A DNA stretch of 4,210 bases from a virus (taxonomy: Duplodnaviria > Heunggongvirae > Uroviricota > Caudoviricetes), in IMG/VR virus record IMGVR_UViG_2534681674_000013, positions 1 to 4,210 of that record. One strand, given 5' to 3'. The notes beneath the pieces are model-generated. The model ran no database searches, was not told where the DNA came from, and saw only the letters and a list, made by a program, of their open reading frames with translations. A program made the position numbers and the translations under genes. Positions 1 through 4,210 of the stretch are shown here, in pieces (the first letter of the stretch is position 1; each line of letters starts with the position of its first letter).

Positions 1-336
1 CGAAGTTATTACGTTCACGCGCACAGACGGCCCCGCCATTACGCTGAACCAGCGGTTACGCACGGAATCTTCATGCCAGCGGGTATCGCTGTAACGGGTA
101 ATCTGGCGATTCCTGTCTCCTGCATAGCTGAATGACGTCACCATCCCCAGTGTGTCCGTAAACTCATAACGGTATTTCACGTTAATCCCGTTCAGATCAT
201 CGCTGCCGGGAACGTTCGTCGAGGCATGAAGATACCCCGCGCTCAGCGTGGACTGATGTTCAGACGCCCATGCAGGCGCACCGGATACGGCCAGACAAAT
301 GGCTGCGGACAAAATGGCGGCATAAAGTTTACGCAT
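1..336 (-). CDS. lom: Lom/Ail/PagC/OmpX-family outer-membrane protein, N-terminal 112 codons (gene continues beyond window position 1)
   Basis: Minus-strand ATG at 336-334, preceded by GAGAGG Shine-Dalgarno (complement of 342-347) with 5-nt spacing. My translation reads [108 protein letters not shown]... This has a typical signal peptide with an AWA signal-peptidase-I site and alternating beta-strand residues, and closely resembles lambda Lom as I remember it. It sits immediately downstream of J, as in lambda. Not in the supplied ORF track because it runs off the window edge. Confidence 0.8.
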
Positions 337-402: not shown

Positions 403-3858
<3,456 letters not shown>

Positions 3859-3882
3859 TCATGACTGAATAAAAATTCTGAA

Positions 3883-3900
3883 TATCTTCACATTTTCTGT
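3883..3900. repeat. Imperfect direct repeat, copy A (TATCTTCACATTTTCTGT)
   Basis: CATTTTCTGT at 3891-3900 is identical to 3981-3990. The flanking ATCTTCA (copy A) and ATCTT (copy B) extend the match with a 2-nt indel. The copies are 90 nt apart. Confidence 0.6.
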
Positions 3901-3974
3901 ACGCCCCCGTGGCAGATATCATTCCCGGGCGTTACAGTTTTTTCGGGCCAATAAAAACAAAACTCCCTGTGGTT

Positions 3975-3990
3975 AATCTTCATTTTCTGT
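3975..3990. repeat. Imperfect direct repeat, copy B (AATCTTCATTTTCTGT)
   Basis: See copy A. Copy B lies immediately 5' (plus strand) of the 3992-4015 hairpin. Confidence 0.6.
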
Positions 3991-3991
3991 T

Positions 3992-4022
3992 CCCGCAGCC
4001 TTCGGTCACTGCGGGATTTTTT
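3992..4022 (+). terminator. Plus-strand intrinsic-terminator-like hairpin plus T-tract (orphan; antisense to the late operon)
   Basis: 7-bp stem CCCGCAG (3992-3998) / CTGCGGG (4009-4015) with a 10-nt loop. On the plus strand it is followed directly by ATTTTTTCGCTTTTA (4016-4030). On the minus strand the same hairpin is followed by AACAGAAAAUG, so it is not a good terminator for I. No plus-strand gene is evident upstream of it. Confidence 0.45.
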
Positions 4023-4027
4023 CGCTT

Positions 4028-4210
4028 TTATGCCTGCCGCCCGATAACCACCACCTTCCCGTCACCGCCTTCATCACGGGTACTGATGTCCTGGGAGATT
4101 CGCCGTGAGCCAACCAGCATTTCACCGTAAGGCACCGGCATCGGGTTCCCCTGTGCAATCATGTTATCCAGCGAGGAAAAGTACGTGTTCTGTCTGCCGT
4201 TATCCGTGCT
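4028..4210 (-). CDS. I: Tail assembly protein I (lambda gpI-like), C-terminal 60 codons plus stop (gene continues beyond window end)
   Basis: My translation of the minus strand from 4210 reads STDNGRQNTYFSSLDNMIAQGNPMPVPYGEMLVGSRRISQDISTRDEGGDGKVVVIGRQA*, with TAA stop at 4030-4028. This matches the C-terminal region of lambda gpI as I recall it (..DNGKQNTYFSSLDNM.AQGN...YGEM.VGSR...VVVIGR..), and the position directly upstream of J agrees with lambda gene order. Not in the supplied ORF track because it is truncated by the window edge. Confidence 0.75.
   Translation of the reverse strand, partial: STDNGRQNTYFSSLDNMIAQGNPMPVPYGEMLVGSRRISQDISTRDEGGDGKVVVIGRQA

Follow-up and report, generated by a model that had tools for sequence, protein, structure and literature searches.

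A terminator in the I-J spacer of a lambdoid prophage as the probable end of a PasB/EcOnc22-24-family small RNA

The hairpin and T-tract at 3991-4022 of the window were assigned as the Rho-independent terminator of a small RNA (sRNA). The window is the whole stretch of viral DNA that was analysed, 4,210 nucleotides of the IMG/VR record IMGVR_UViG_2534681674_000013. The sRNA would be an allele of the PasB/EcOnc22/23/24 family, located in the spacer between the tail genes I and J and directed against the late operon. We gave this reading a probability of about 0.87. A PasB/EcOnc-type sRNA at I-J is a known kind of element at a known locus of lambdoid prophages. The earlier note on this DNA had described the structure as an "orphan" terminator that no plus-strand gene precedes. 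That description was not retained, since the gene ahead of the terminator would be the sRNA itself.

Results

Genomic context of the I-J spacer

The window was the tail end of the late operon of a lambdoid prophage, and the operon was encoded on the minus strand. The flanking features were as follows.

1-336, minus strand: lom, partial (Pfam Ail_Lom, E = 6e-63)
403-3792, minus strand: tail tip attachment gene J, with its ATG at 3790-3792 and six GpJ/phage-tail Pfam domains (1e-33 to 1e-41)
3824-3857, minus strand: late-direction terminator-like hairpin ACAGGCATCC/GGATGCCTGT followed by TTGTTTTTG, just upstream of the J ribosome-binding site
4028-4210, minus strand: 3' end of tail assembly gene I, with its stop codon at 4028-4030 and its last 60 codons at 4031-4210

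Gene I was annotated from its translation and from the RefSeq annotation of the identical locus in O26:H11 11368. The spacer between I and J was 235 nt long (3793-4027), compared to 60 nt in phage lambda. The late-direction hairpin at 3824-3857 lay outside the sRNA. It had a folding energy of -19.3 kcal/mol (z = -5.0), and the sequence on its T side was UUGUUUUUG. This hairpin was kept in Sakai and EPEC with a compensatory change (GGCATCC/GGATGCC vs GGCACCC/GGGTGCC), and lambda had a hairpin and a T-tract at the equivalent place.

Several side observations were made around the spacer. The block at 3858-3896, TCATGACnGAATAAAAnTTCTGAAnnTCTTCACATTT, was located between the two hairpins. It was the most conserved block of the spacer and surpassed the sRNA body in this respect. 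It may serve the sRNA promoter as an UP element or -35 region, or it may belong to the 3' portion of a sense-strand RNA that ends at 3824. Between J and the PasB-like gene, a Cu/Zn superoxide dismutase gene (175 aa, Pfam Sod_Cu, E = 4e-32) was found in locus L007 and in at least 12 more IMG/VR loci. This sodC insert was on the antisense strand, had its own terminator and removed the hexamers of the candidate promoter P1 described below. The I-J spacer is thus a hot spot for cargo directed against the late operon. In locus L028, the promoter region of the sRNA contained an insertion sequence that carries a transposase ORF. The loci L036, L052, L063, L071, L075, L078 and L082 had an additional stretch of about 150 nt, with its own GC-rich hairpin, between J and the conserved block. 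Between the J stop and the lom start, the minus strand at 361-384 had a terminator-like GGCGTCA-GAAA-TGACGCC followed by T6.

The hairpin is oriented to stop a plus-strand transcript

The terminator consisted of two parts.

3991-4016, plus strand: terminator stem-loop, with an 8-bp stem TCCCGCAG/CTGCGGGA that includes six G-C pairs and a 10-nt loop CCTTCGGTCA
4017-4022, plus strand: T6 tract, predicted to form the 3' end of the sRNA and its tail for the proximal face of Hfq

The two stem arms were at 3991-3998 and 4009-4016, and all 8 bp were matched. The plus strand continued 3' of the stem with TTTTTTCGCTTTTA, in which T6 occupied 4017-4022, and the gap between T6 and the I stop codon was 5 nt. 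On the minus strand, the stem was followed by ACAGAAAATGAAG, which was A-rich and had no U-tract. This confirmed the earlier proposal that the hairpin was oriented to stop a plus-strand transcript. A G+C-rich stem-loop directly 5' of a U-tract on the transcribed strand is the arrangement of an intrinsic terminator.

The folding of the plus-strand hairpin was calculated as RNA. The energy was -14.0 kcal/mol with z = -3.3, and none of 200 dinucleotide shuffles was as stable. The terminator scan of 3600-4210 gave three terminator-like sites, where 0.6 were expected from shuffles. Owing to its loop limit of 8, the scan reported a shifted, weaker stem at 4011-4025 and missed the main stem.

Published homologues: PasB and EcOnc22-24

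RIL-seq in EPEC O127:H6 E2348/69 yielded five "pathogenicity-associated" sRNAs, among them PasB (Pearl Mizrahi et al. 2021, PMC8550237). PasB is an 83-nt RNA of prophage PP6 on the minus strand of NC_011601.1, from 1466343 to 1466261 (PMC8550237, Table S6). In the E2348/69 record, PasB was flanked by two plus-strand genes, gpJ and the tail assembly gene with its end at 1466255. PasB was convergent with I, and its end was 6 nt from the I stop. The published 3' end at 1466261 was the end of the homologous T7. According to the main text, the stability of PasB depends on Hfq (PMC8550237). Two expression tables of Table S2, which were taken as the hfq-mutant comparison, give log2 values of -6.8 and -2.4 for PasB (PMC8550237). 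The same study lists 37 RIL-seq interactions of PasB, mostly in the non-activating growth condition. PasB takes the second position in about 99-100% of its chimeras, which is typical of an sRNA.

EcOnc22, EcOnc23 and EcOnc24 are homologous Hfq-CRAC peaks in the prophages Sp15, Sp14 and Sp11 of O157:H7 Sakai, respectively (Tree et al. 2014, PMC4104026, Table S2). EcOnc22 gave a band of about 85 nt on a northern blot and was destabilised in an hfq deletion strain (PMC4104026). We placed the three peaks by their probe, because the coordinates in Table S2 of PMC4104026 refer to an older Sakai record. In each of Sp15, Sp14 and Sp11, the peak fell between I and J, on the strand that does not encode these two genes. 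If the coordinates were shifted by about +128 nt, which we take to reflect the length of the older Sakai record, the CRAC peak would lie on the sRNA body. The position of the EcOnc42 probe agreed with this shift only roughly.

The strand of these RNAs was read from the northern probes. The PasB probe was AATCCCGCAGTGATCGCGGAGCT (PMC8550237, Table S6), and in E2348/69 it was an exact match to the late-operon strand over the hairpin. Since a probe pairs with its RNA, the RNA itself corresponds to the plus strand of the window. The first 23 nt of the common probe for EcOnc22/23/24 matched the late-operon strand exactly at all three Sakai loci, just 5' of the hairpin. Since both probes were late-operon strand over or beside the hairpin, the RNA was on the plus strand and ended at the T-tract. 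Northern blot, Hfq CRAC and RIL-seq have thus detected, strand-specifically and in homologues, the kind of short antisense RNA against I and J that the earlier note had expected.

The window allele belongs to the same locus

We compared the window spacer with the spacers of PasB and EcOnc22-24. Two forms of the predicted sRNA were considered, which differed in the inferred start.

3945-4022, plus strand: predicted PasB/EcOnc22-family sRNA, short form from candidate promoter P2, 78 nt
3929-4022, plus strand: predicted PasB/EcOnc22-family sRNA, long form from candidate promoter P1, 94 nt

The 235-nt I-J spacer gave a collinear end-to-end alignment with the spacers of PasB (E2348/69) and EcOnc22-24 (Sakai). 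The predicted gene was in the spacer at 3793-4027 between I and J, on the strand opposite to the late operon, as in PasB and EcOnc22-24. Homology to these founding members extended along the whole RNA. The 3' terminator CCCGCAG/CTGCGGG with at least six U was a few nt from the I stop, and an unpaired conserved motif, the predicted seed, was directly 5' of the terminator. In the sRNA segment, the identity of the window allele was 74.7% with PasB and 72.3% with EcOnc22, and PasB and EcOnc22 had 75.3% identity with each other. By sequence, the window allele would be a third type that is about 73-75% identical to PasB or EcOnc22. When PasB was used as the query in blastn, it retrieved window-type spacers of Stx phages with 80% identity over 88% of the query length (E = 2e-7).

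The PasB and EcOnc22-24 genes were in the same I-J slot, were alignable and were on the same strand. Therefore, PasB in EPEC and EcOnc22-24 in EHEC are one locus as judged from sequence. This equivalence was based on the alignment and probe mapping made here. The link between the two names was absent from Table S6 of PMC8550237, which gives no EHEC homologue for PasB, and from the preprint 10.64898/2026.05.13.724894, in which EcOnc22-24 are not mentioned.

The preprint predicted a PasB seed just upstream of the terminator and described PasB as usually single-copy (Zhu, Shabalina and Storz 2026, 10.64898/2026.05.13.724894). Its census of bacterial genomes used a word size of 28 (10.64898/2026.05.13.724894). 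PasB and the window had no exact word in common that was longer than 17 nt within the sRNA or 22 nt within the spacer. Both lengths are below 28, and for this reason the census would probably have missed the window allele. As a side observation, the single-copy statement of the survey may reflect a search at word size 28 that missed the diverged EHEC alleles. It is also possible that published censuses undercount a single large mosaic family made up of PasB, EcOnc22-24 and the window type.

Conserved parts of the family

Spacers upstream of J were collected from 80 IMG/VR loci, EPEC and Sakai. They gave 28 distinct sRNA sequences, and 22 representatives were aligned. A G+C-rich stem followed directly by 6-8 T, with the I stop a few bases further on, was present on the plus strand of all 22 alleles. 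The T-tract of the window had six T, compared to 7-8 in most other alleles. The 7-bp core stem was kept in the 22 alleles except for one mismatch (L030) and one loop-deletion allele (L021), and the loop varied from 4 to 16 nt. Most stem pairs were invariant. The L037/L040 lineage had a longer, different stem, CTCCCGTAATA/TATTACGGGAG, in which two of the seven core pairs were changed on both sides (C-G to U-A and G-C to A-U). These two compensatory pairs were probably a single event, and the covariation was thin. Conservation was strand-specific: the T-tract of the plus strand was kept, and the minus-strand sequence past the stem was variable and had no U-tract.

Two sequence elements were identified in the RNA body.

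3950-3961, plus strand: AAT AAA AAC AAA, four A-R-N triplets, a possible Hfq distal-face site
3973-3980, plus strand: putative seed TTAATCTT, the unpaired motif with the highest conservation in the family, directly 5' of the terminator

The columns of TTAATCTT were invariant or nearly so in the 22-allele alignment. RNAalifold on the alleles gave no conserved pairing in the RNA body and none over TTAATCTT. A-rich tracts were found at the matching place of the A-R-N triplets in the EPEC and Sakai alleles. An Hfq role of 3950-3961 is possible under the A-R-N rule cited in PMC4104026. The window allele had the sequence features of an Hfq-type RNA, namely a U-rich run before the stem, the hairpin, U6 and the A-R-N triplets. 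The fold of the whole window RNA was no better than that of shuffles (z = -0.6), which is usual for Hfq sRNAs and adds no support. Allele lengths, counted to the T-tract from the base before the P2 start, were 76-93 nt, and this agreed with the measured sizes.

Candidate promoters and the start of the RNA

Three pairs of hexamers on the plus strand were compared.

3861-3888, plus strand: ATGACT, 16 nt, TATCTT, the promoter of the earlier note, judged not to be the sRNA promoter
3895-3922, plus strand: candidate promoter P1, TTCTGT (3895-3900), 16 nt, TATCAT (3917-3922), start at about 3929, RNA of 94 nt
3910-3938, plus strand: candidate promoter P2, TGGCAG (3910-3915), 17 nt, TACAGT (3933-3938), start at G3945, RNA of 78 nt

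A promoter scan of 3600-4210 gave no promoter-like sites. P1 had 7 of 12 hexamer matches in the window, below the scan threshold, and its homologue in E2348/69 was TTCACA-16-TATAAT, with 11 of 12 matches. P1 would make the PasB of EPEC 98 nt long, compared to the published 83 nt. P2 had 6 of 12 matches in the window. Its -10 pattern TAnnnT was kept in every allele, and its predicted start was 1 nt from the published 5' end of PasB. The sodC-insertion alleles retained the -10 element of P2 and lost P1.

The hexamers at 3861-3866 and 3883-3888 were present with their 16-nt spacing as the earlier note had described, but they were below the scan threshold and were not conserved. The expressed Sakai copies read ACTCTT in place of TATCTT, and L036-type alleles replaced ATGACT. 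P1 and P2 fit better than 3861-3888 as candidates on sequence grounds. Of these two overlapping candidates, P2 was favoured by several points. With a start at about 3929-3945, the RNA would not reach the minus-strand hairpin at 3834-3857. At the other end, the RNA was predicted to halt 5 nt before the I coding sequence, instead of overlapping the end of I as had been suggested.

Alternative explanations

The terminator could be a mere insulator against incidental antisense transcription from the AT-rich spacer, with a short RNA that has no function in the window allele. The promoter hexamers of the window were weak, and none of them passed the scan. The literature on PasB and EcOnc22-24 gives no target or phenotype, and the I-J spacer holds other antisense cargo with its own terminator, for example sodC in the L007 group. 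These points would suit an insulator. However, the homologues were abundant, Hfq-bound and Hfq-stabilised, and 37 RNA partners were found for PasB. The unpaired 8-nt motif was conserved among alleles that are about 25% apart, and the RNA body and the terminator were intact even in the sodC-insertion alleles. We therefore regarded a mere insulator as distinctly unlikely. It was also considered that the hairpin acts on the minus strand, in the late polycistronic mRNA past the I stop, as a 3' stabiliser or processing site, so that the T-tract of the plus strand would be incidental. The minus-strand fold of the inverted repeat was indeed the more stable one (-17.4 kcal/mol, z = -5.2), and the repeat stood immediately past the stop codon. 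Such a role was judged very unlikely, because T6-8 was on the plus side in 22 of 22 alleles, including L037/L040 with a different stem, whereas the minus-strand sequence past the stem was variable and without a U-tract. In addition, strand-specific probes detected the plus-strand RNA in homologues, and lambda, with an I-J gap of 60 bp, was without the whole module.

A longer RNA had been proposed in the earlier note, about 130 nt on the plus strand from a start near 3895, driven by ATGACT (3861-3866) and TATCTT (3883-3888). Both hexamers were inside the most conserved block of the spacer with a 16-nt spacer between them. The RNA from this promoter would be about 128 nt, whereas the homologues measured 83-85 nt. 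ACTCTT in the expressed Sakai copies lost the key A at position 2 of the -10 element, and L036-type alleles retained the sRNA with the -35 element replaced. The longer RNA was highly improbable on these grounds and was set aside. The plus-strand RNA might instead be the antitoxin of a type I toxin-antitoxin pair, over the start of a late-strand ORF that runs from 3983 to 3888 (MKINHREF..., 31 aa). The ATG and the first four codons of this ORF lay under the conserved motif, and the change between ATT AAC in the window and ATC AAT in EPEC was apparently synonymous. However, several alleles, among them the L011, L014, L055 and L058 types, read ACG or ACA in place of the ATG. The peptides varied in length and sequence and were not hydrophobic on inspection. 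A conserved small hydrophobic toxin ORF opposite the sRNA was not found across the alleles, and we gave a toxin-antitoxin pair next to no credence. The terminator of a PasB/EcOnc22-24-family sRNA was thus retained as the main reading.

Discussion

Proposed mechanism

Transcription of the window sRNA would start from a weak sigma-70 promoter within the spacer, at about 3929 or 3945. The polymerase would halt at the T-tract 5 nt before the I stop, which would give an RNA of 78-94 nt; this end was shown in the homologues. Termination at this place would keep antisense transcription out of gene I. The terminator hairpin, the U-tail and the preceding U-rich stretch would form the usual Hfq-binding module, as suggested by the sequence. 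The largely unpaired body with the conserved UUAAUCUU (3973-3980) as its predicted seed may pair with mRNAs in trans. Hfq dependence and RNA partners were shown for the homologues, and we infer by analogy that the window allele would behave as they do, as an Hfq-bound and Hfq-stabilised RNA of about 80-85 nt with multiple partners.

Another reading of the family function was considered. The alleles are perfectly complementary to their own late mRNA at I-J and partly complementary to the junctions of co-resident prophages, and for this reason the family could be a cis/trans antisense brake on the expression of the tail-tip gene J or a means of inter-prophage interference. We held this to be rather unlikely. 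If it were true, the mosaic 5' regions and the loops would set the specificity.

Distribution and significance

Blastn at word size 11 located the segment 3929-4027 in about a fifth of complete E. coli genomes (1151 of 5426), with 1 to 9 copies per genome. Copies at least 95% identical to the window type were found in 441 records. Identical DNA was present in E. coli O26:H11 11368, in O121 and in other cattle- or human-derived strains, and copies with 97-99% identity were in Stx1a and Stx2a phages. Strains of O157, O26 and O121 commonly carried the window type, as did Stx phages. An exact-pattern scan of GTDB species representatives gave three matches and was uninformative on host range. Two of the matches were unrelated terminators in Alistipes and Clostridia MAGs. 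The third, L088, was a 460-bp contig (NZ_FWPT01000051.1) of the Parendozoicomonas haliclonae assembly, with an I C-terminus that was 98% identical and a PasB-like spacer. It was most likely E. coli prophage contamination in the assembly of a marine bacterium.

No RefSeq feature was found under the sRNA matches among the matches listed. A scan of the window with Rfam 15 at E-values up to 1 gave only a chance snoRNA match in J (15 bits against a gathering threshold of 40). With no RefSeq feature under the listed matches and no matching Rfam 15 model, the RNA will go on being read as an "orphan" terminator. In practice, the result helps annotation and brings two published names together as one RNA, which would be useful for studies of PasB targets. 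The family has several alleles that are about 25% apart, the window type included, and the result does not open a new biological question.

Comparison with known systems

Three other identities were considered and rejected. HnrS (EcOnc10-12), a 66-nt RNA that represses hha and is present in up to nine copies, belongs to a lysis-region locus and not to I-J; EcOnc11 mapped beside the endopeptidase gene of Sp10 and not in an I-J spacer. EcOnc36 (Sp5) lay within a large ORF, and its phage had no I-J junction. The identity with AgvB/AsxR was rejected because these RNAs are at another locus, downstream of PR', and no Rfam match was obtained.

The OOP RNA of lambda is about 77 nt long, has an intrinsic terminator, and is convergent with and antisense to a phage gene. 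It acts in cis, via RNase III, on cII, whose 3' end it covers. In contrast, the window RNA would end before the I coding sequence, and its homologues work together with Hfq on RNAs that are unlinked.

AgvB and AsxR (Rfam RF02702 and RF02703) are prophage anti-sRNAs located downstream of PR'. They resemble the window RNA as short Hfq-binding sRNAs that are cargo of lambdoid prophages, with a conserved 3' terminator module and a variable 5' region, and they are multi-copy in EHEC. However, their place is downstream of PR' and not in the I-J spacer, and they had no match in sequence or structure. They are anti-sRNAs, whereas no sponge activity is known for PasB.

The closest comparison was with the founding members. 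PasB differed from the window allele in its 5' third and its terminator loop, and its promoter hexamers in EPEC were TTCACA/TATAAT, compared to the much weaker TTCTGT/TATCAT in the window. EcOnc22-24 had a 5' region that was 6 nt shorter and another loop. In contrast, the I-J spacer, the strand, the terminator stem and the T-tract of EcOnc22-24 were all as in the window. PasB likewise shared the I-J slot, the orientation, the stem CCCGCAG/CTGCGGG with a T-tract about 5-6 nt from the I stop, the conserved motif and a similar length.
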